Below are positions 187 to 53,116 of a stretch of DNA of 64,000 nucleotides, piece by piece; the first letter of the stretch is position 1; every line of letters begins with the position of its first letter. This DNA comes from an uncultured Alphaproteobacteria bacterium. Its GTDB lineage: Bacteria; Pseudomonadota; Alphaproteobacteria; HIMB59. The stretch covers positions 7,381-71,380 of the forward strand of contig CACNLH010000007.1 in the NCBI GenBank assembly GCA_902621205.1, in the 5' to 3' direction. The position numbers and the translations under genes are program-made. Below the pieces are notes generated by a model, which searched no databases, was not told the DNA's origin, and was given only the letters and a program-made list of their open reading frames with translations.

Positions 187-897
187 TTATTTAAAGTAAT
201 TTATAAATGAAGGTTTTGTTGAAGCAGAGCCTACCAAAACCCCATCTAATTTTTGTAAACTTAAAATTTCTTTTATATTTGATAAATTTACGGAACCACC
301 ATATAAAATTTTTATTTTTTTAAAAGAATAATTTTTTAATATTTTGGTCAAAAATTGCAAAATATCATTAATTTCAGACATTTTTGGTGTTAATCCCGTA
401 CCAATTGACCATAAAGGCTCATAAGCTAGTATCACTTCATTATAGATGTTAGATTTTTTAAATATTTTATTTATTTGTTTTTTTAAAAAATTTTTAGTTT
501 TTTTTGATTTATAAATATCTACAGGCTCTCCAATACAAACAATTGGTGTAATTTTGTTATGCAGACAAAGATCAGTTTTTTTTTGTATAATCAAATCTGT
601 TTCACCAAAGTTAGACCTAACTTCTGAGTGACCAAGAATACAAAATTTAATATTATTACTAACTAAATCTTGAATATCTATAGACCCTGTAGAAGCACCT
701 TTTCCATGTAAATCTACATTTTGTGCTGCATAGATATTTTTTGGATATCTAGATTTGAGAGTGAGGTTATAAAAGTTATTAGGACTAGAAATAAGTTTGT
801 ATTTCTTTGTACTTGGTAGTTTAGACACTACCTTTGATAAGTTCATACTTTCAGATATATTTAAATATGATTTCCAATTAAATATTATATATTTCAT
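187..897 (-). CDS. tpiA: Triosephosphate isomerase
   Basis: NWK, GHSE, AYEPLWSIGTG, LYGGSV and DGVLVG motifs; start moved to ATG 897 (MKYIIFNWK). Confidence 0.95.
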   Translation of the reverse strand: MKYIIFNWKSYLNISESMNLSKVVSKLPSTKKYKLISSPNNFYNLTLKSRYPKNIYAAQNVDLHGKGASTGSIDIQDLVSNNIKFCILGHSEVRSNFGETDLIIQKKTDLCLHNKITPIVCIGEPVDIYKSKKTKNFLKKQINKIFKKSNIYNEVILAYEPLWSIGTGLTPKMSEINDILQFLTKILKNYSFKKIKILYGGSVNLSNIKEILSLQKLDGVLVGSASTKPSFINYFK

Positions 898-928
898 TAG
901 GTTAACTGATATCAAAATACTTATAAAA

Positions 929-2470
929 ATGAAAACTAAAAAGCTAATAGTTATAATATTTAGTGCTGCACTAGGCATAAGTTTCTTATTTATCGGATTT
1001 GGATCCTATGTGGGTAAAAATTATGTTTTAAAAGTAGGAGATCAAAAAATATCAACATCTGAATTTTCTAGAGCATATGAAAACTATAAATCTGAAAATG
1101 GGCTTTCTAATTTATCAGAACAAGAAGAGTTATTTTCAAAAATTCAATTTACAAATGAATATGTAAATGAGCTAGTTTTTCTTAATTATTTAGATGGAAA
1201 AATTAGTATAAGTGATAACTCCAAAAAAGTAGTTTTAAAAAAATCTTTAAATAATGACGAAATGTTTAGAAATCTAGATGAAGCATCACTTCAAAATTAC
1301 TTAAAAGAAATTGAGGGAAATATATATATTGATTTATTCAATGATAGCCTTGATGCGCAGACATTAGTTAGTCACGAAATTAATCCAGATCTTCTGATTG
1401 AGAAAGAATTAAATATATATGAGATTAAAAATGACGATAATCTTCTCAATTATCAATTAGAGGAGGATTTTTACTCCAATAACGAATTATATGAAATTTC
1501 AATTAATGAAATAAGTATCAAAAATTATATTCAAGAAGAACTACTAACTGATGACATTATAAATGAATATTATGAGGCAAATATAAATAAATTTATTGAG
1601 CCTAAAAATTATACCTATGAACAGATTATTTTAGATAGTATTTCAAATAAAAATTTTAATGAGCTGAAAGAGGGTGAAGACTCTCAATTCAAATTATTCG
1701 AAAACGTAGATGAAAAATTAATATTACCTCAAATTCTTGAAGTATTAAAAAAACTTAGTTTAGGAGATGAAGGTAATAATATTAAAATTGGAGAGAAATA
1801 CTTTTTTGTAAAACTTTTGTCTCTTGAAGAAGAATATCAAAGTACATTAGAGAATGTTTATGAAGATGTAGTAGCGACTTTAACTAAATTAGAAATAGAA
1901 AATTTTACACTAACTAATAATGTTAAAAATTTAGATAGCTATATTACAAATCAGATCTTTTTTAGTAATTCATTTAATTTTTTAGAAAATATTCCTGATC
2001 AATACAATTTTATCAACTTTAATCAATCATCCGGGGAAATAAAAAAAGATAATTTCTTATTTCAATTTAATGTTCAAAAAATATATAAAGAAGATCTACC
2101 ATTAGAGTTCAAAGAAAAATTCCTAAATTCTTTTAGCAATTATAAGAAAAATATAGACATTTCACATAATGATGAATTATTAAAAAAAGCAGGAACAGTA
2201 AAGGTCAACTATTTTACTGACTCTCTTACTATTAAAAATAATTTTATTGAGCCAGAGATTTTAGAAGAAATAATTATTATTAAAAAAGACCAAAAATTAA
2301 AAGTAGTGTTACCAAATGAAGTTATTTATTTAGATATAAATTCAATTGGATCTATTGACTCTTTAAATATAAAACAAAATATAGTGAATTTAATATATTC
2401 AAAGATTATTAAAGAAATAAAAGAAACTCTAGATATAGAAGTTGATAACGAACAACTTTTACAACTTTAG
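929..2470 (+). CDS. SurA N-terminal-domain / PpiD-like periplasmic folding chaperone
   Basis: N-terminal TM, KVGDQKISTSEF, YYEAN..KF.EP; conserved alphaproteobacterial position between tpiA and trpE; start at ATG 929. Confidence 0.75.
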   Translation: MKTKKLIVIIFSAALGISFLFIGFGSYVGKNYVLKVGDQKISTSEFSRAYENYKSENGLSNLSEQEELFSKIQFTNEYVNELVFLNYLDGKISISDNSKKVVLKKSLNNDEMFRNLDEASLQNYLKEIEGNIYIDLFNDSLDAQTLVSHEINPDLLIEKELNIYEIKNDDNLLNYQLEEDFYSNNELYEISINEISIKNYIQEELLTDDIINEYYEANINKFIEPKNYTYEQIILDSISNKNFNELKEGEDSQFKLFENVDEKLILPQILEVLKKLSLGDEGNNIKIGEKYFFVKLLSLEEEYQSTLENVYEDVVATLTKLEIENFTLTNNVKNLDSYITNQIFFSNSFNFLENIPDQYNFINFNQSSGEIKKDNFLFQFNVQKIYKEDLPLEFKEKFLNSFSNYKKNIDISHNDELLKKAGTVKVNYFTDSLTIKNNFIEPEILEEIIIIKKDQKLKVVLPNEVIYLDINSIGSIDSLNIKQNIVNLIYSKIIKEIKETLDIEVDNEQLLQL

Positions 2471-2471
2471 T

Positions 2472-3860
2472 ATGTATGTTCACGGTAAAAAAGTTTTTCT
2501 AGATACTGAAAATACAATTACAATATATAATAAACTTGCAAATAGATTTAAAGATGTCTCCATTTTAGAGTCAGTCATTGGGGGTGATAATAAAGGAAGA
2601 TACTCTATTATTCTTTTTAATATATTACAAAATATTGAAATTTTTCATAATTATGTGCTTGTAGATAATCAAAAGAAAAAAATTAAATCACCAGACTCTT
2701 TTATAAGGCAAATTTATAAAAATTTAAAAATTAAAACTATATATGATCAGAACATACCTCTACCCGTATTTATAGGTAACGTATCATTTGATTTATGTAA
2801 GTTTACCCTTCCAAAATTAAGTTATATGCCTGATAAGAATGAAATTGGAATACCTCTGGCACATTTTGTAAAACCAAGAAATCTAATAATCATAGATAAT
2901 GTTCTTAATGAGACACATTTAATTGAAGTTTCAAATATCAAGAAAAAACCAGTAAAATCCCTTAAAACATTAGAAAATATACTTAAAGAGTCTTTTTCTA
3001 AAAATAAAAAATTAAATTTTAGTAAACTTAAAAAATTTAAAAACTATGTTAAGAAAGAGGAATTTATTCAAAGAGTTAAGGAAATAAAAAGTGAAATTAA
3101 AGTTGGTGAAATATTTCAAGCTGTTCTTTCTCAAAGATTTTCTAATGACTATTTAATTGATCCATTTAATTTTTATAGAGCATTAAGATCAATTAATCCC
3201 TCACCTTATCTTGTTTTTTTAAACCTAAAAAACTATCAAATTATCTGCTCAAGTCCTGAGACTATGATTAAAGTAAAAAATAAAGAAATTACACTCAGAC
3301 CTATTGCCGGAACTAGAAGAAGGGGTAAAAATGAGATTGAAGATAATAATTTAAAAAATGAATTACTTAAGGATAAAAAAGAACTAGCTGAACATTTAAT
3401 GCTAGTTGATTTAGGTAGAAATGATGTTGGTCAAATTTCAAAAAATAATACTGTAAAGGTAACTGAGCAAAATATAATAGAATATTATTCTCATGTAATG
3501 CATATAGTCAGTAATGTTACGGGAGAATTAAAAAATAACTTAACACCTATAGATGTTCTCTTTGCTGGCTTGCCAGCAGGGACTGTTTCTGGAGCGCCTA
3601 AAATTAGAGCACTAGAAATATTAGAAAAACATGAAAAAATAAATAGGGAATTTTATTCAGGTTCAGTTTTTTATATAGATGCAAATGGGGATATGGATAG
3701 TTGTATTAATCTCAGAACTGCAATGATTAAAAATAAAAAAATATATGCACAAAGTGGAGCAGGTATTGTTTTTGACAGCATACCTGAAAATGAACATAGT
3801 GAGTGTATCAATAAGGCTAGTGCTTTATTTGAAGCTTACAATTTAGCTCACAACATATAA
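2472..3860 (+). CDS. trpE: Anthranilate synthase component I
   Basis: GEIFQAVLSQR, NPSPY, PIAGTRRRG, EHLMLVDLGRND, GTVSGAPK. Confidence 0.96.
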   Translation: MYVHGKKVFLDTENTITIYNKLANRFKDVSILESVIGGDNKGRYSIILFNILQNIEIFHNYVLVDNQKKKIKSPDSFIRQIYKNLKIKTIYDQNIPLPVFIGNVSFDLCKFTLPKLSYMPDKNEIGIPLAHFVKPRNLIIIDNVLNETHLIEVSNIKKKPVKSLKTLENILKESFSKNKKLNFSKLKKFKNYVKKEEFIQRVKEIKSEIKVGEIFQAVLSQRFSNDYLIDPFNFYRALRSINPSPYLVFLNLKNYQIICSSPETMIKVKNKEITLRPIAGTRRRGKNEIEDNNLKNELLKDKKELAEHLMLVDLGRNDVGQISKNNTVKVTEQNIIEYYSHVMHIVSNVTGELKNNLTPIDVLFAGLPAGTVSGAPKIRALEILEKHEKINREFYSGSVFYIDANGDMDSCINLRTAMIKNKKIYAQSGAGIVFDSIPENEHSECINKASALFEAYNLAHNI

Positions 3861-44891: not shown

Positions 44892-45401
44892 TTACCTATA
44901 AATCTTCTTTTTCTTTTTGATTTTATCTTGAAGTTGCATAATGCCGTACAAAAGAGCTTCTGCTGTAGGTGGACATCCAGGGACATAAATATCAACAGGC
45001 ACTATCCTATCGCATCCTCGAACAACAGAGTAAGAGTAGTGATAATATCCTCCTCCATTAGCACAAGAACCCATAGAGATTACCCATCTTGGTTCAGGCA
45101 TTTGATCATAAACTTTTCTCAAAGCAGAAGCCATTTTGTTTGTAAGAGTTCCCGCAACAATCATTACATCAGATTGTCTTGGAGAACCTCTTGGAATTAC
45201 ACCTAAACGATCTAGATCGTATCTACTCATATAGGAGTGCATCATCTCAACACCACAACATGCTAAACCGAAAGTCATAGGCCATAAAGATCCTGACCTC
45301 GCCCAATTTATTAAATTTTCAAATGATGCTGTTACAAAACCTTTTTTTTCAAATAGCTCATCAATATTTAATGATTTGTCTTTTTCTAATACTACTCCCA
45401 A
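44892..45401 (-). CDS. nuoB: NADH-quinone oxidoreductase subunit B
   Basis: [23 protein letters not shown]; probable TTG start at 45401 overlapping the end of nuoA. Confidence 0.97.
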
Positions 45402-45751
45402 TCTAGTGCTCCATTTTTCCATTCATATATAAAACCTACTGTGAGAATAAATAAAAAAAACATCATTGAATAAAAACCAAGAGCTCCAATATTGCTAAGA
45501 CTCACGGCCCAAGGAAATAAAAACGCAATTTCTAAATCAAATATAATAAATAGTATTGATACTAAATAAAACTTAACATCAAATTTTGACCGAGCGTCGT
45601 CAAATGCCTCAAAACCACATTCATATGCAGATAGTTTTTCAGTATCAGGTGAGCTAGGTGATAATATTTTTGAGAGCAAATACATAGCGATTGCCATTCC
45701 TGCCCCAATAATAATGAATATCAATATGAAAATATAATCTAGGTTGTACAT
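45392..45751 (-). CDS. nuoA: NADH-quinone oxidoreductase subunit A
   Basis: [29 protein letters not shown]. Confidence 0.97.
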
Positions 45752-45781
45752 TAAAAGTTTTGATTTTCCGTAACGCAATAC

Positions 45782-45825
45782 ATTATAAGAAACAATATGT
45801 ATTTAGTGACGATAAAAATGACGCA
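45782..45825 (-). promoter_or_regulatory. Putative nuoA promoter (TATAAT -10) with an upstream GCGNC-type inverted motif
   Basis: Minus strand TGCGTC-ATTTTTATC-GTCACT-17 nt-TATAAT, ~30 nt before the nuoA ATG. Confidence 0.4.
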
Positions 45826-45880
45826 TTAGTCTTACACTTGATTTTTAAATATTTGAGTGTAAAAAAGTTAAAAAAATATT

Positions 45881-46909
45881 TTATCCTTTAGAGTAATAAG
45901 CAACTCTATCTTCTGTAAAGATAGGAAATGATTCATTTATTGTTTGTTTTTTTAGATTACTACAATAATAGCCAATATTTTCTATTAAAAGGTCCTTACA
46001 TTCAGTTCCAAAGTGAATTTCATCAGCATAAATAGATTGATAAGAGCCATCTAATCTTGAACCATAAATACCAAATTTAAAATTTGCCAAATTATCTGAG
46101 TTTTTTACACCTTTTTGATCTTTCCAGAGTGTTTGGTTTTTTCTGTAATGCAATAACTTTCCATTTAACCAAATTTTATGAAAAGCTTTGGAAATATCCT
46201 TTTTATTAAAATTAATATTGAAGACTAAATCATACCATTTATTCCTTTGTAAATTTTTTGCAGATATTATTTGGTACCAATCATGCCTAGCTTCACAAAA
46301 AATTCTTTTATCAGTATCCTCTGGACCTCCAGCACCAGGTGAGCAATCATCATTCCCTCCTTCAATAATAATAACTCCCTCACTAGATTCGTGTCTCCAA
46401 AGTAAACCTTTCTTCTTGTCTATCTGAAGCATAAACATAGGACCAAAAAAACTCTCTGTGCTATGAAATTGCAATATTGATTTATTCATAGCGCTATCAT
46501 TATTTAGTTCGTAATTTTCTGTGATTAAAAAAGAATAAGATAACCATATTTCTCCTTGAAAACCATAATTGGTTCCTACCTCTACTCTTTTTTGTTTTTC
46601 ACCATTTGGTCGTGAGCAATCTTTTAATTTGTTATAACACTCATCGCCTGGTGCTTGGATAAAAAAAGCAGTGTCTCCGTATCTTGTTTTTTCTTTCTGA
46701 AGTTGAAAAAGCACCAATTTTTTTTTTCTTTGATATTTTTTTATTTCTTCTTTTGAACTAGCATTCCAACCTGGGTCAATTTTAAAACCTTTAATTGTTG
46801 TATCGCCAAAGCTCATACCAAGTTTCTTTAATCCATGAACATCTTTTGATTTATAAGAAGAACATGAAAATAAAGAAAAAATTAAAAAAAACGAAATGAA
46901 TATTTTGAA
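45881..46909 (-). CDS. Polysaccharide lyase / heparin lyase I-like (Polysacc_lyase, beta-jelly-roll) predicted lipoprotein; start unresolved
   Basis: Lipobox LFS-C after hydrophobic IFISFFLIF; motifs R.EV, WLSYSF, LQFH, KWYDL.F.INF, IWLNGK, FKFGIY, ADEI recalled from this family. The frame stays open to a TTG at 46972 inside tRNA-Asp. Confidence 0.7.
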   Translation of the reverse strand, partial: FKIFISFFLIFSLFSCSSYKSKDVHGLKKLGMSFGDTTIKGFKIDPGWNASSKEEIKKYQRKKKLVLFQLQKEKTRYGDTAFFIQAPGDECYNKLKDCSRPNGEKQKRVEVGTNYGFQGEIWLSYSFLITENYELNNDSAMNKSILQFHSTESFFGPMFMLQIDKKKGLLWRHESSEGVIIIEGGNDDCSPGAGGPEDTDKRIFCEARHDWYQIISAKNLQRNKWYDLVFNINFNKKDISKAFHKIWLNGKLLHYRKNQTLWKDQKGVKNSDNLANFKFGIYGSRLDGSYQSIYADEIHFGTECKDLLIENIGYYCSNLKKQTINESFPIFTEDRVAYYSKG

Positions 46910-46910
46910 G

Positions 46911-46988
46911 TGGCGGGAGCGACGGGACTCGAACCCGCGACCTCCTGCGTGACAGGCAGGCGTTCTAACCAAACTGAACTACACCCCC
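46911..46988 (-). tRNA. tRNA-Asp(GTC)
   Basis: GGGGGTGTAGTTCAGTTTGGTTAGAACGCCTGCCTGTCACGCAGGAGGTCGCGGGTTCGAGTCCCGTCGCTCCCGCCA; cloverleaf with encoded CCA. Confidence 0.97.
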
Positions 46989-47001
46989 GACAATTGTCGA
47001 A

Positions 47002-47077
47002 TGGTGGGCGATGACGGACTCGAACCGCCGACCCTCTCGGTGTAAACGAGATGCTCTACCAACTGAGCTAATCGCCC
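47002..47077 (-). tRNA. tRNA-Val(TAC)
   Basis: GGGCGATTAGCTCAG...TTTACAC...GGTTCGAGTCC...CGCCCACCA. Confidence 0.97.
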
Positions 47078-47095
47078 TATCTAATTTGCAAAAAA

Positions 47096-47377
47096 TTAGA
47101 CTGTGGACTTTATTAGTTCTTTTAGCTGTTTTCCAGCAAGAAATTTTGGCTTTTTTGATGCAGGAATTTGGATAGACTCTCCAGTTCTTGGGTTTCTTCC
47201 AGTCTTAGCTTTTGTGTTAGCTACCTTAAAAGTACCAAAACCGGCAATCTTAACATCCCCTCCTGCTTTCAAAGTAGATGTGATAATATCAAATAAACTT
47301 TCTACAGCCTTAGTTGCATCTGATTTTCCAACACCATTTTTCGTACTATATTCAGCAATGAGTTCATTTTTGTTCAT
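47096..47377 (-). CDS. hupB: DNA-binding protein HU
   Basis: MNKNELI, GFGTF, GRNPRTGE; AGGAGG SD; follows lon. Confidence 0.95.
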   Translation of the reverse strand: MNKNELIAEYSTKNGVGKSDATKAVESLFDIITSTLKAGGDVKIAGFGTFKVANTKAKTGRNPRTGESIQIPASKKPKFLAGKQLKELIKSTV

Positions 47378-47407
47378 ACCGAACCTCCTTAGTGATTCTA
47401 TTAGTTA

Positions 47408-47437
47408 ATTGTAGTAAGAAAAAGGTAAGAAAATCAA
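47408..47437 (-). promoter_or_regulatory. Putative sigma70 promoter for hupB-tRNA-Val-tRNA-Asp
   Basis: Minus strand TTGATT-18 nt-TACAAT in the lon-hupB spacer. Confidence 0.45.
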
Positions 47438-47447
47438 CAACAATATA

Positions 47448-49865
47448 CTAGTTGACGAATGTTTTTTCTTGATTTTGCTGGTTTTTTGGCTTCATAGACT
47501 CAGTAACTAAGTGTCTCCAGTCCAATTTTTTGTTGATTTTACTAATTTTTCCATCGAGAGCCAAGTCCAATACCTCTTTTGCAAACTCGACTTTCTTAAT
47601 TATCAACTTGTTTTGGATGTCTTTTTGTATTTCAACTAAGTCCTTTTCATTCTCTTTTGGGATGATAACAGTTTTAATACCGTATCTTATAGCAGCCAAT
47701 AATTTCTCTTTTAATCCGCCAATTGGAAGAACTCTTCCTTTTAAAGTAATTTCTCCTGTCATTGCAATGTCTCTTTTTATTTTGATATCAGTAAGAGATG
47801 AAATTAATGAGGTAAATATTGTTATTCCAGCACTTGGACCATCTTTAGGTATGGCTCCTTCAGGAACATGTAAATGGATATCTATTTTATCAAAAACCTT
47901 AGGGTTCACTCCAAACTCAACAGAATTAGATTTAATGTAACCTAAAGCAGCAGTAATAGACTCTTTCATCACATCACCAAGTTTACCTGTTGCATTAATC
48001 ATTCCCTTGCCTGATGATAAGTTAACTTCAATATTTAAGATATCTCCACCAACCTGAGTCCATGCTAGACCATTAGTAATGCCAACTAAATTTTTCTTTT
48101 CTAAAACACTATCTTTGAATTTCTCTGGGCCTAAAAAATTTTTTATAGCCTTATCATCAAAAACAAATGGCTTTTTTGATCTTGATTTATTTTTTTCTAA
48201 TTGAAAAACAAGTTTTCTAAAAAGCTTATCAAAAACTTTTTCAAGCCCTCTGACACCAGACTCTCTAGTATAATGTCTCACAATTTTAGTAATTGAACTT
48301 TTATCAAGTTTAAATTCATTATTTTTTAAAATATTTTTATTCATTTTTCTTGGAATTAAATATTTTTTTGCAATTTCAACTTTTTCTTTTTCAGTATAAC
48401 CAGATACTTCAATGACCTCTAATCTGTCAAGAAGAGGACCAGGTATGTTGTAAGTATTACCTGTGCATATAAACATCACATTTGATAAGTCATAATCAAC
48501 CTCAAGGTAATGATCATTAAACTGGTTATTTTGCTCTGGATCTAACACTTCTAACAATGCAGAGGATGGATCACCTCTCCAGTCACTACCTACTTTGTCA
48601 ATTTCATCAAGTAAAATAATTGGATTAGATGTTTTTGTTTTCTTCATAGCCTGAATAAATCGACCAGGCATTGAGCCAATATATGTTCTTCTATGTCCTC
48701 TGATTTCAGCCTCATCTCTAATTCCACCAAGAGAAATTTTAGCAAATTCTCTACCTGTAGCTCTCGCAATGGATTTACCTAATGAAGTCTTACCTACGCC
48801 TGGAGGTCCTACAAAACAAAGTATTGTGCCAGATGCTTTCTTTGATCTTTTTTTGACTGCTAAAAATTCAAGTATTCTCTCTTTGACTTTTTCAAGACCG
48901 TAATGATCATCATTTAGAATTTCTTCAGAACCTTTTATGTCTATAACTTCTTTTGAGAAATTTTCCCATGGGATATCTAATATCCACTCTAGGTAATTGC
49001 GAATAACTGATGCTTCTGCAGACATTGGGCTCATAGATTTTAATTTTTTAAATTCATTTAAAGCTTTTTCCTTTGCCTCTTTTGATAATTTTACCTCATT
49101 AATTTTTTTCTCTATTTCAGAATATTCGTTTGAACCATCTTCACCATCACCAAGTTCTTTCTGTATGGCTTTCATTTGTTCATTTAAGTAGTACTCTCTT
49201 TGAGTTTTTTCCATTTGTCTTTTTACTCTATTTTTTATTTTTTTCTCAAGAGCAGAAAAGTTAAGTTCTTTTGAAAAGAAATTCAGTAAGTTTTGAATTT
49301 TTTTATTAATATCAATAATTTCTAAATTTTTTTGTTTATCTTCAATTCCGATGTTTAAGTTGTAATAAATATTATCAATGAACTGATAAGGATCTTCAAT
49401 GTTTAAAAGTCCTTCAAGGATGTCATTATTATTTCCTATATTTTGTATATAATTTTGAAATTCGTTTTTTAAAACTCTTAATGAAGCTTTTAATTCAACT
49501 GAATTTTTTTTGTTAATTACTACTGTTTCAATTTTAGCTGTGAGGAAGTTATTATTTGCCTTAACAGCAGACTTTATCTTTACTATTTCTAAGCCTTCAG
49601 TAAGGACTTTATATGTATTGTCAGGTAACTTGAGAAACTGAATAATTTTTGATTTTACTCCGTAGGAATAAACATCGTTAACTTGGGGATCATCAGTCGT
49701 TGGTTCTTTTTGCGTAAATAAATAAATTATCTTATTGTTATGATTCATGGCAAAATTAATTGCATCAATAGATTTAGCTCTGCCAACAAACAAAGGTGAG
49801 GTTATAGAGGGATAAACAACTAAGTCCCTTAAAGGTAAAATAGGTCCAATGATTTGATTTTCCAT
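47448..49865 (-). CDS. lon: Lon protease
   Basis: LPLRD, GPPGVGKTS, PKDGPSAG, GGLKEK. Confidence 0.98.
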   Translation of the reverse strand: MENQIIGPILPLRDLVVYPSITSPLFVGRAKSIDAINFAMNHNNKIIYLFTQKEPTTDDPQVNDVYSYGVKSKIIQFLKLPDNTYKVLTEGLEIVKIKSAVKANNNFLTAKIETVVINKKNSVELKASLRVLKNEFQNYIQNIGNNNDILEGLLNIEDPYQFIDNIYYNLNIGIEDKQKNLEIIDINKKIQNLLNFFSKELNFSALEKKIKNRVKRQMEKTQREYYLNEQMKAIQKELGDGEDGSNEYSEIEKKINEVKLSKEAKEKALNEFKKLKSMSPMSAEASVIRNYLEWILDIPWENFSKEVIDIKGSEEILNDDHYGLEKVKERILEFLAVKKRSKKASGTILCFVGPPGVGKTSLGKSIARATGREFAKISLGGIRDEAEIRGHRRTYIGSMPGRFIQAMKKTKTSNPIILLDEIDKVGSDWRGDPSSALLEVLDPEQNNQFNDHYLEVDYDLSNVMFICTGNTYNIPGPLLDRLEVIEVSGYTEKEKVEIAKKYLIPRKMNKNILKNNEFKLDKSSITKIVRHYTRESGVRGLEKVFDKLFRKLVFQLEKNKSRSKKPFVFDDKAIKNFLGPEKFKDSVLEKKNLVGITNGLAWTQVGGDILNIEVNLSSGKGMINATGKLGDVMKESITAALGYIKSNSVEFGVNPKVFDKIDIHLHVPEGAIPKDGPSAGITIFTSLISSLTDIKIKRDIAMTGEITLKGRVLPIGGLKEKLLAAIRYGIKTVIIPKENEKDLVEIQKDIQNKLIIKKVEFAKEVLDLALDGKISKINKKLDWRHLVTESMKPKNQQNQEKTFVN

Positions 49866-51145: not shown

Positions 51146-51736
51146 TTATTTTTCAATTCTAGTAGTAATTACTTTATCTATCAAACCAAATTTTTGCGCC
51201 TCTTCAGGGTCAAAGAATCTATCTCTTTCCATTGCCTTTTCTATTTCACCAATGCTTATCTTGGTATGCTTTTGATATATTTCATTGAGTCTTTTTTTTG
51301 TCTTTAATATCTCTTCAGCATGAATTTTAATATCACTCGCTTGTCCTGAAAAACCACCAGATGGTTGATGAATCATTATTTTAGAGTGTGGTAAAGCATA
51401 CCTGTTGCCCTCTTTTCCTGCAGCGAGTATTAATGAGCCTGCAGAGGCAGCTTGACCTATACAAACTGTATGAACAGGACATTTTATATATTGCATAGTG
51501 TCATACATTGCCAATCCAGCTGTAACTAGACCACCAGGTGAATTGATATAAAGATTAATGGGCTCTTCTGGATTCTCAGACTCTAAAAATAAAAGTTGAG
51601 CGCATATTAAAGAGGCAGTCTCATCATTGATGGCACCTGTCAAAAAAATAATTCTTTCTCTGAGCAGTCTGGAGAAAATATCAAAAGATCTCTCCCCTTT
51701 TCCTGATTGTTCAATGACTATGGGTACTAGATTCAT
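51146..51736 (-). CDS. clpP: ATP-dependent Clp protease proteolytic subunit
   Basis: [31 protein letters not shown]. Confidence 0.98.
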
Positions 51737-52937
51737 TATTTTGAGATCCTTTTTTCATTAGCTCTTCTAAGCTTAACTTAGTTTCTTTGATTTTAAAAGT
51801 TTTCATAGACTCATCTGCTATTTTATTTCTAAGAAGAGTACCATAAGCAGCTTCTGCCGTTCTTTGATCAATTTTTTCACCATAATATTTTTGAATATAC
51901 TCTTGGAGTTCTTTCTGCTCAACTTTTACATTTAAAAATTTTACTAATTCTGAAAAAAGAACGTCTTTTTGAATATTCTCACTTGTGAGTTTTTTTAAAC
52001 TATCAATTCTTTCTTTGTGCTCATCCTTCATTTTAGATAAATCAATTTGATATTTTCTTTTAAGCTCAAGATTTACAACCTCCTCGTTGATATCAATCTT
52101 TTTCTTTTGTGATAGGACTTTAAGTAGATCTTCAATAAAAAACTCTTTTTGAAGATAATTCATATCCTCATTGAGTTTATTATCAATTTTGTCATTTAAT
52201 TCTTTAGTAGATTTTAATTTTAAAATCTTAATCAACTCGTCATCATTTTTAGGATAAATCTTTTTATTTATATCTTTGATTTGAGCGTTTATCTTTATTC
52301 CTTTTGTGGAAAAATTAATATCAGATTTATTTTTAATTTTTAAAAGAGATTTTTTTAAGTCTAAAAATACTTCTTCTTTCGTTTGGGTGTTTAAGTCTAC
52401 TCTTACCTCTTTTTGAGAAAATAATTTTTTTTGTTCATCTTCATAGTTTAATATTTCAAAATCTATAACAGAATTTTCATCTGATATATCTATACTCTCT
52501 AATGAATAGTACTCTTTTCTTACTTTTTCTCTAAAATCATCAATATCTTTTTTTGTTACCTCTGAAGTAACTTTCTCTATTTCACTTGTTTTTAACTCAT
52601 CCATTTTAATTTCGGGTTTCAAATAAAAAGCCAAGGTAAAATTATAATTATCTTTAAAATTAACATCAGGTTGTATCAGGGATTGTATTTTTTCATCCTC
52701 ACTGATTTTATTTATATTTTTTGATACCTCTTCATTTAATACCTCGTTTTCAATTTGAAGACCAATTTTAGACTTTATGATGCTTACCGGTACTTTGCCC
52801 TTTCTAAAACCTGCAATTTCAAAAGTAGGTTGCTTTTCTGATATTTTTTCGTCAATAATTTTAGCAATAGCGCTTTGATCTAAAGATACCTCAAAAGATG
52901 ATTTGTAACTTTTTTTTTCTATGTTTTTATAATCCAT
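51711..52937 (-). CDS. tig: Trigger factor (divergent)
   Basis: GFRKGKVP ribosome-binding motif; tRNA-Leu-tig-clpP synteny; start at ATG 52937. Confidence 0.88.
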
Positions 52938-52950
52938 ATTACTTGTATTC

Positions 52951-53032
52951 TGGTGCGCCAGGAGGGACTCGAACCCCCACGGTTGCCCACTGGTTCCTAA
53001 GACCAGCGCGTCTACCATTCCGCCACTGGCGC
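52951..53032 (-). tRNA. tRNA-Leu(TAG)
   Basis: GCGCCAGTGGCGGAATGGTAGACGCGCTGGTCTTAGGAACCAG-variable arm-GGGTTCGAGTCCC...GGCGCACCA. Confidence 0.97.
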
Positions 53033-53038
53033 ACAAAT

Positions 53039-53116
53039 TGGGGCGAGTAAGGGGACTTGAACCCCCGACCTCCGGTACCACAAACCGGCGCTCTAACCAA
53101 CTGAGCTACACCCGCC
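53039..53116 (-). tRNA. tRNA-His(GTG) with G-1 and C73
   Basis: GGCGGGTGTAGCTCAG...TTGTGGT...GGTTCAAGTCCCCTTACTCGCCCCA. Confidence 0.96.

Follow-up and report, generated by a model that had tools for sequence, protein, structure and literature searches.

Introduction

A protein gene can be transcribed behind tRNA genes and keep its own ATG downstream, as in thrU-tyrU-glyT-thrT-tufB. Actual overlap of a tRNA and an ORF was described in a computational study of Alphaproteobacteria: tRNA-Sec (selC) is nested in selB, at its 3′ end, and is presented as the first bacterial case of a tRNA lying within an ORF (Mukai 2021, PMC8124441). At integration sites, the integrase genes of Mx8 and SSV extend across attP (PMC4383910). 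On unusual start codons, a preprint (bioRxiv 10.1101/063800) gives infC and pcnB as AUU-initiated genes with low expression from the near-cognate codon, and states that in E. coli UUG initiates at 10–100% of the AUG rate and AUU at ~0.02–3%. Our literature search, which covered largely sources other than subscription journals, found no paper on a tRNA that supplies the start of a downstream gene, and overlap between a tRNA and an ORF was found reported in the reverse geometry only (tRNA-Sec at the end of selB).

Here we analyze a 64,000-nt stretch of bacterial DNA (the window) in which a lyase ORF lacking a start of its own stands in frame behind tRNA-Asp. The arrangement is real and conserved and is not a sequencing error. 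The product is predicted to be a polysaccharide-lyase-like lipoprotein. The host genome measures 1.30 Mb (86% complete, ~28% G+C), and the stretch carrying the locus is present in marine runs. A first-pass annotation had proposed that the unprocessed tRNA precursor could serve as Shine–Dalgarno (SD) site, start and N-terminus of this protein, an interpretation that our results partly support.

Results

Layout of the locus

All genes of the locus lie on the minus strand in the order hup, tRNA-Val, tRNA-Asp, ORF and nuoA. The first is presumed to be hup (HU) and the last nuoA, judging by their sequences. The tRNA-Asp gene is the only one found in the 86%-complete genome. The features, in window coordinates, are as follows:

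47408..47437, minus strand: sigma-70-like promoter match upstream of hup (consensus match; 7 sites against 7.9 expected in shuffles, i.e., chance level)
47096..47377, minus strand: presumed hup (HU), with a strong SD (-12.3 kcal/mol)
47002..47077, minus strand: tRNA-Val(TAC)
46989..47001, minus strand: inter-tRNA spacer hairpin; in the nascent transcript it is predicted to cover the SD-like 5′ end of tRNA-Asp as well
46911..46988, minus strand: tRNA-Asp(GTC) with encoded CCA, which ends at 46911
46982..46988, minus strand: SD-like GGGGGTG, which forms the 5′ side of the acceptor stem (-12.5 kcal/mol when paired with the 16S tail of this genome)
46970..46972, minus strand: D-loop TTG, the proposed start, 9-nt gap after GGGGGTG; no other canonical start precedes the signal peptide
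46911..46955, minus strand: att core, i.e., the 3′ 45 nt of tRNA-Asp, copied by integrative elements in relatives
46910..46972, minus strand: 21 tRNA-derived codons, the would-be n-region
46865..46909, minus strand: 15 codons after CCA (Lys/Arg, hydrophobic h-region, lipobox), of equal length in 25/26 loci
46909-46907, minus strand: codon 2 after CCA, TTC here, with one C between CCA and TTC
46895..46897, minus strand: ATT, the rival near-cognate start, 13 nt after CCA (ATT 23, ATC 1, GTT 1 of 25 alleles)
46862..46864, minus strand: lipobox Cys, TGT here (TGT 13, TGC 12 of 25)
46817..46861, minus strand: tether and the part of the mature N-terminus conserved in the family, before the internal Met
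46814..46816, minus strand: internal ATG (ATG 23, GTG 2 of 25), the start in most database gene calls (311 aa)
46016..46705, minus strand: PF14099 polysaccharide lyase domain, beta-jelly-roll (Pfam E 4.5e-17)
45881..46972, minus strand: whole ORF, 363 aa counted from TTG, with the stop at 45883-45881
45392..45751, minus strand: presumed nuoA, the fixed gene downstream of the variable site

The earlier coordinates of tRNA, SD-like site, TTG, CCA, Cys, ATG and stop were all confirmed, and so was the absence of any ATG, GTG or TTG between CCA and the lipobox Cys. The comparison that had been drawn with rpsB also holds: an rpsB-like gene at window position ~22466 (minus strand) has GGGGG 5 nt before its ATG. 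An in-frame TAG in the 5′ end of tRNA-Asp bounds the lyase frame, which is open from there on and reads ...RRSRH-FKIFISFFLIFSLFS-C. This TAG occupies tRNA positions 8-10 and precedes the TTG, so the ORF takes in 62 of the 78 tRNA nucleotides and not the entire tRNA. Between the D-loop TTG and the internal Met, the frame holds no ATG, GTG or TTG.

A rule-based scan of the genome returned 11 lipoprotein-like frames, 10 of which have a canonical start and a Cys at residue 14-22; the lyase ORF, with only the D-loop TTG and Cys37, is the sole exception. The idea that non-canonical starts are a habit of the lipoproteins of this genome was rejected on these counts (10/11 canonical). Lipoproteins carry a basic n-region and a Cys ~15-35 residues from the start. 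A start at the TTG gives a basic n-region and Cys37, a start at the ATT gives no Lys/Arg and Cys12, and the sister lineage has Cys30. Elsewhere in the host genome (G000), on the plus strand of contig C17 from 4267, a 327-codon open frame has 84 protein-like codons before its first canonical start, possibly another non-canonical start.

The predicted lyase

The Pfam PF14099 match scores 63.1 bits against a curated cut-off of 29.9, and the structure model, built from 37 sequences (mean pLDDT 87.5), is a beta-jelly-roll; in both respects the product resembles PF14099 polysaccharide lyases. Its best structure match is glucuronan lyase 2ZZJ (E 1.4e-12), followed by alginate lyases and heparinase I, at no more than 18% identity to these folds and a TM-score of 0.45 by query. 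We take the three to be families PL20, PL7 and PL13, respectively. Most PF14099 relatives have Sec-type signals, and a lipobox occurs only in the clade of the lyase ORF. There, the Cys is kept in 25/25 alleles with both codons in use, and the h-region is uncharged in 24/25; in one allele, position -1 of the lipobox is a Lys. The host genome encodes LspA and RNase P RNA. Lgt was not found in this 86%-complete assembly and was found in 4/5 relatives. The N-terminus was also checked for a twin-arginine signal, in which the arginines are followed by x-F-L-K; the Arg pair here lacks that continuation, and this candidate was rejected.

Two family-conserved residues lie upstream of the internal Met, Asp8 (at least 90% of 37 homologs) and Leu15 (all 37), and 38 homologs mostly begin with ATG and a signal-like stretch, as judged by eye. 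The 311-aa form, which lacks both the lipoprotein signal and the conserved residues, was seen on 329 contigs. Whichever upstream start is used, databases thus mis-call the protein, and a predicted surface glycan-degrading enzyme is filed as cytoplasmic. Distant lyase-family paralogs with ordinary ATG signals exist (G000 C1:143876-144502, or L030, and L012-L029), several of which adjoin other tRNA genes (Thr, Ala, Arg).

The junction in close relatives

A lyase copy with at least 94% identity is present in 23 of 71 genomes (26 matches minus 3 at 48-50%). The junction could be compared in 26 loci, from 21 genomes and 5 metagenome contigs: two of the 23 carriers were left out, G090 for a contig edge and G007 for the loss of the 5′ half, and L009 was dropped as a second copy of G013; close hits from a further search did not enter the count again. 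No ATG, GTG or TTG occurs in the lyase frame between CCA and Cys in any of the 26 loci. The stretch has the same 64-nt length and frame in 25/26, despite a run of 8-9 T. The alignment of homologs that had been suggested as a check therefore gave no normal start after CCA (0/26) and a junction frame that is not random (25/26). The exception, G075, is a pseudogene with an extra T (frameshift) and a nonsense codon in the gene body; together with G007, it makes up the 2 broken copies among 23. Two control stretches behave differently. The A/T run after the stop codon has 4 lengths in 23 loci (14, 6, 2, 1), and the CCA-to-nuoA spacer has 4 lengths (78-83 nt) in 8 empty sites.

Codons were counted in 25 alleles, leaving out the frameshifted one; these alleles are kin with one shared origin, so the counts overstate independence. 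Codon 2 is TTC in 14, TTA in 9, ATT in 1 and TCA in 1; codon 3 is Lys/Arg in 25/25, as in both lineages at 75% identity described below; codon 4 is ATA in 14 and otherwise Thr/Ala. Since codon 2 is TTC, TTA, ATT or TCA, and Asn in the second lineage, any start upstream of the codon-3 Lys must lie in the tRNA. Reads were likewise consulted at 46909-46907: four DNA runs from four studies list TTA but no variant making TTG or ATG, in a check that rests on contigs, which drop rare variants. In L032, near 1080-1104, the 5′ part of tRNA-Val runs directly into the final bases of tRNA-Asp, and the frame agrees with that of the lyase. This junction is probably a mis-assembly because it would remove both tRNAs.

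Selection on the coding stretch

Purifying selection still acts on the lyase gene, with a pN/pS of 0.17-0.24 in the gene body. From the Cys to the internal Met, the ratio is 0.27-0.38 (P 0.003-0.043 depending on the model), and 11/16 positions are identical across to the 75% lineage. Over codons 2-32, 24.5 of 58 changes are synonymous against 22% expected (P ~0.001), and no stop occurs (P ~0.016). The codons before the internal Met are thus under coding selection, and translation begins upstream of the annotated Met. For the signal part alone, pN/pS is 0.47-0.68 (P 0.02-0.16 depending on the model), and no body window has a pS as high as the pN of this part (0.76). Signal peptides usually change fast. 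The constant length, the Cys and the Lys/Arg are better evidence than this rate, since relaxed selection would look alike.

Deeper lineages

In a cluster at 75% identity, 7 of the 15 members listed begin with the tRNA-Asp peptide, with the frame kept and the Cys one codon later, and the others listed are called from an internal Val or are fragments; this fused lineage rests on database gene calls, and its DNA was not found in 187 genomes of the order nor in 47 loci. A sister cluster has a free ATG, a Cys at residue 30 and the same TTA AAA pair in internal position, and no tRNA was found in the 380 nt upstream of the gene in L034. A Cys at residue 30 in this free-ATG lineage indicates that a long n-region works in the clade. 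In the tree, the three lipoprotein lineages form one group (99/99), within which the fused 75% cluster and the free-ATG cluster are sisters (88/89), so that the tRNA fusion would either be old and lost once, or have arisen twice in the same frame. In either history, the ancestral start is not at codon 2. The TTA or TTC found there was also tried as a start and rejected, given that it varies to TCA and that TTA AAA is internal in the free-ATG lineage.

In L034, at ~340-380, the free-ATG N-terminus shares 8 bases (Ile-Pro-Tyr), in frame, with an island arm beside the att core. The free-ATG lineage might descend from an island-side allele minus its tRNA part, and the sharing may also be chance. 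Neither a lyase relative nor the junction pattern was found in viral contigs.

An integration hotspot

The interval between tRNA-Asp and nuoA is hypervariable in the genus. Where the lyase is absent, the site is empty, or is occupied by integrative elements or by different secreted genes that bring an ATG of their own. Displaced 45-nt copies of the tRNA-Asp 3′ end occur in 7/71 genomes, and L050 has an integrase-like ORF; tRNA-Asp is an integration target in the lineage. No displaced tRNA fragment was found in G000, and island-bearing relatives have the lyase outside the island, behind the fragment. The locus thus departs from the Islander definition of a tRNA-targeted island, in which the gene lies between the intact tRNA and the fragment, together with an integrase. 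That the lyase was captured at this hotspot is what we infer, as no tRNA fragment stands behind it. A functional link between tRNA and lyase did not emerge either: the gene is variable cargo, and elsewhere other genes or nothing follow tRNA-Asp. Among 38 regions taken from genomes that lack an intact lyase junction, none showed other cargo using the tRNA-Asp frame.

Several elements at this site deserve mention. L050 (5346-11200) carries a 5.8-kb tRNA-Asp element whose ORFs resemble, by eye, integrase, primase and helicase genes. A 2.7-kb remnant with a secreted 475-aa hydrolase-like gene (L040 7158-9875 and L041 7380-10097) recurs ahead of different downstream alleles. In L062 (G007), at 467-3112, an island remnant is followed by the 3′ half of the lyase, the tRNA fragment and the 5′ half of the gene being deleted. 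In L073 and L078, a 393-aa secreted-protein gene has its own ATG 11 nt behind the CCA of tRNA-Asp, in a different frame.

In three of 21 genomes (G013, G071, G087), an island separates the D-loop from an intact lyase by 2.7-5.8 kb. Its arm supplies an in-frame TTG or GTG behind a purine-rich site, and the database protein P0048 is similar. We rejected these starts as a sign of selection: arms are equally open in genomes without the lyase, so a start in the arm is luck or reflects a recent insertion. The lyase is broken in 1/4 island-bearing carriers and in 1/18 others with a visible junction, numbers too few to judge.

Start-like features of tRNA genes

The SD-like site, the TTG and the basic n-region noted in the first-pass annotation are all present, but carry no weight as arguments because tRNA function fixes them and they are generic in tRNAs. 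The first 40 residues of the ORF match 426 database proteins, mostly singleton read-through calls from many unrelated bacteria, and 118/119 further listed proteins were located by the tRNA peptide motif, again mostly read-through calls. In this genome, 29/32 tRNA genes contain a start codon with a frame running past CCA, and in 21/32 such a start comes with an SD-like site at least as strong as -5 kcal/mol. Of all tRNA-internal starts, the TTG of tRNA-Asp is preceded by the strongest SD (-12.5 kcal/mol), and it is the one canonical start open past CCA that the three frames of this tRNA offer. The start features of tRNA-Asp are latent and were present before the lyase gene arrived. A trigger-factor-like ORF (window 51711-53081, minus strand) runs in frame through tRNA-Leu and tRNA-His and has its own ATG 13 nt after CCA; its read-through is a chance control.

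The anti-SD of the genome is normal and little used: AGGA precedes 58/563 unambiguous starts vs. 22 in a control window. About a tenth of the genes show an SD motif above background, and translation is mostly SD-less. In six genes, the ATG follows a tRNA CCA at a distance of 5-16 nt. In predicted foldings, whose energies omit tertiary folding and modification, the SD-like site of tRNA-Asp first pairs with the spacer and the tRNA-Val tail and later within the cloverleaf, and opening it costs 7-14 kcal/mol at every transcript length tried (10.9-13.9 with tRNA-Val attached, ~7 during elongation after the RNase P cut). At the ATT, the cost is 3.3 kcal/mol. A perfect AGGAGGT in the variable region of the tRNA was rejected as an SD, having no near-cognate codon at usable spacing.

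Transcription

The match at 47408..47437 is the likely start of a hup-tRNA-Val-tRNA-Asp-lyase transcript. No terminator-like site was found in 45600-47600. Contigs from RNA libraries of all four studies cover parts of the lyase gene. One contig, 1015 nt long, bridges the junction: it begins within the tRNA, of which it includes 62 nt, and spans most of the gene. A second bridges it with 28 nt on the tRNA side; such contigs can neither exclude DNA carry-over nor tell strand or 5′ ends. An RNA contig ending at 46972 was rejected as a 5′ end, given that loose ends of other organisms' tRNAs pile up there. In run X15, the lyase is covered and the nuoA side is not, a gap that proves nothing. An internal promoter in the signal region was also rejected: none was found at the scan threshold, and a TATAAA-like hexamer is broken in intact alleles.

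Discussion

We hypothesize that the lyase is likely translated, at a low level, from the D-loop TTG on unprocessed precursor, each transcript ending as tRNA or as protein, and we give this reading a probability of about 0.5. The gene would have been captured at the hotspot and lost its own 5′ end, with the tRNA replacing its first codons, and would be co-transcribed from the hup-tRNA promoter. A few precursors would be caught by 30S at GGGGGUG/UUG before the cloverleaf closes, more easily after RNase P removes the spacer. The 36-residue signal would then lead to lipidation at Cys37 and be cut by LspA; as this cut removes every tRNA-derived residue, the odd N-terminus would cost nothing. High flux through the tRNA promoter would compensate for poor initiation. 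The plainer reading is that the tRNA start is a tolerated accident kept by selection on the enzyme, and not an evolved switch.

Initiation at the TTG faces several difficulties. The structured site must be caught before it folds, although the higher initiation rate of UUG relative to AUU offsets part of this cost. The three island-bearing alleles must use another start. Cys37 lies beyond the 14-22 range of the other 10 lipoproteins, and the signal part evolves fast, with weak codon-level selection. Moreover, SD sites are little used in this genome, and the ATT lies at the same distance from CCA (5-16 nt) as the ATG of six genes.

The strongest alternative, which we nevertheless regard as unlikely, is a start at a near-cognate codon behind CCA, most likely the ATT at 46897, used without SD in an open, A/U-rich trailer. 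The signal would have 11 residues without Lys/Arg, and the agreement in frame between ORF and tRNA would be a coincidence with a probability of one in three. The first-pass annotation had named ATA or ATT as such a start. A fixed ATA at 46903 is ruled out, being present in 14/25 alleles, and the ATT still stands as a rival. This codon is ATT or ATC in 24/25 alleles, has the lowest opening energy, would be unaffected by island insertion, and suits a mostly SD-less genome with six genes starting 5-16 nt behind CCA. Initiation at AUU, AUA and AUC does occur in E. coli, at ~0.02-3% of AUG (bioRxiv 10.1101/063800). Yet one intact allele has GTT at this codon, and the 75% lineage has Ile or Thr at the matching position. 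Cys12 is shorter than in the other 10 lipoproteins and leaves no basic residue. The ATT also leaves unexplained both the invariant Lys/Arg at codon 3 and the lack of net CCA-to-ATT indels in 26 loci and the second lineage.

It is improbable, in our judgment, that the working start is the internal ATG/GTG at 46816, giving 311 aa and no signal, with the upstream part a recent relic or a minor product. A start-capable codon is found there in 25/25 alleles (ATG 23, GTG 2) and TTG in one read contig; gene calls in the 75% lineage begin at the matching Val, though GTG makes up 8.6% of Val codons; and codon-level constraint on the signal part is weak. Such a start would, however, delete family-invariant residues, and it leaves aside the constraint between Cys and Met (pN/pS 0.27-0.38, 11/16 identical to the 75% lineage). 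The fused allele P0051 has Ile at this position, and GTG, TTG and ATA are each one change from an ancestral ATG, while the full-length homologs listed begin with hydrophobic, signal-like N-termini (by eye).

More improbable still are other routes, namely a -1 slip on the T run, an ACG start in the D-stem or allele-specific starts. The T run is of a slippery type, and another frame crosses the tRNA without a stop until a TAA at the tRNA's end, but that frame has no canonical start in the tRNA and the run is broken in the intact L047. Finally, a base-call error or private TTG-to-TTC change at 46909-46907, as the first-pass annotation had allowed for, or a dead gene can practically be dismissed: TTA, one step from TTG, is seen in 9/25 alleles and 2/23 copies are broken, but TTC stands in 14/25 independent assemblies and TTG or ATG in none, the four DNA runs contain neither, and the gene body is under purifying selection.

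If translation from the D-loop TTG is true, a canonical tRNA precursor would be a working mRNA leader in abundant marine bacteria. It would point to a general way for genes that arrive at tRNA hotspots to be expressed without a promoter or start of their own. A wider reading joins these observations, and we offer it tentatively, as somewhat less probable than its alternatives taken together. In it, a single-copy, essential tRNA would provide the ribosome-binding site, start and n-region of a secreted enzyme in two long-diverged lineages. As most tRNAs hide an SD-like 5′ stem and a D-loop UUG, hotspot tRNAs would be latent starts that rescue start-less cargo, chiefly exported proteins, which lose their foreign N-terminus by cleavage. 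Enzyme output would then be set by how fast the tRNA folds and is processed, and integrating elements would swap in a start from their own arm.

Known systems share parts of this arrangement. As in the tRNA-tufB co-transcripts, a protein gene stands behind tRNAs; the lyase differs in lacking an ATG of its own. Under initiation at the ATT, the gene would resemble infC and pcnB (bioRxiv 10.1101/063800), except that the ATT is not invariant and the signal is left without a basic n-region. With the Mx8 and SSV integrases (PMC4383910), the lyase shares a reading frame that takes in tRNA-derived att sequence where elements integrate. In those integrases, the int gene belongs to the element and starts in element DNA, whereas the lyase is start-less cargo for which the intact chromosomal tRNA would supply the start; the three island-bearing alleles resemble the Mx8/SSV case. 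The closest parallel is tRNA-Sec/selB (PMC8124441), where a tRNA is likewise read as protein on the same strand, with the frame kept across relatives, and where tRNA and protein are likewise proposed as alternative fates of a transcript, both cases being computational. In that system, the ORF has its own start and carries the complete tRNA at its 3′ end, and the two products are functionally linked. The lyase gene, by contrast, is cargo with no relation to the tRNA. Its 5′ end would consist of 62 of 78 tRNA bases, the tRNA would also contribute the SD along with the start, and cleavage of the signal would remove all residues of tRNA origin.
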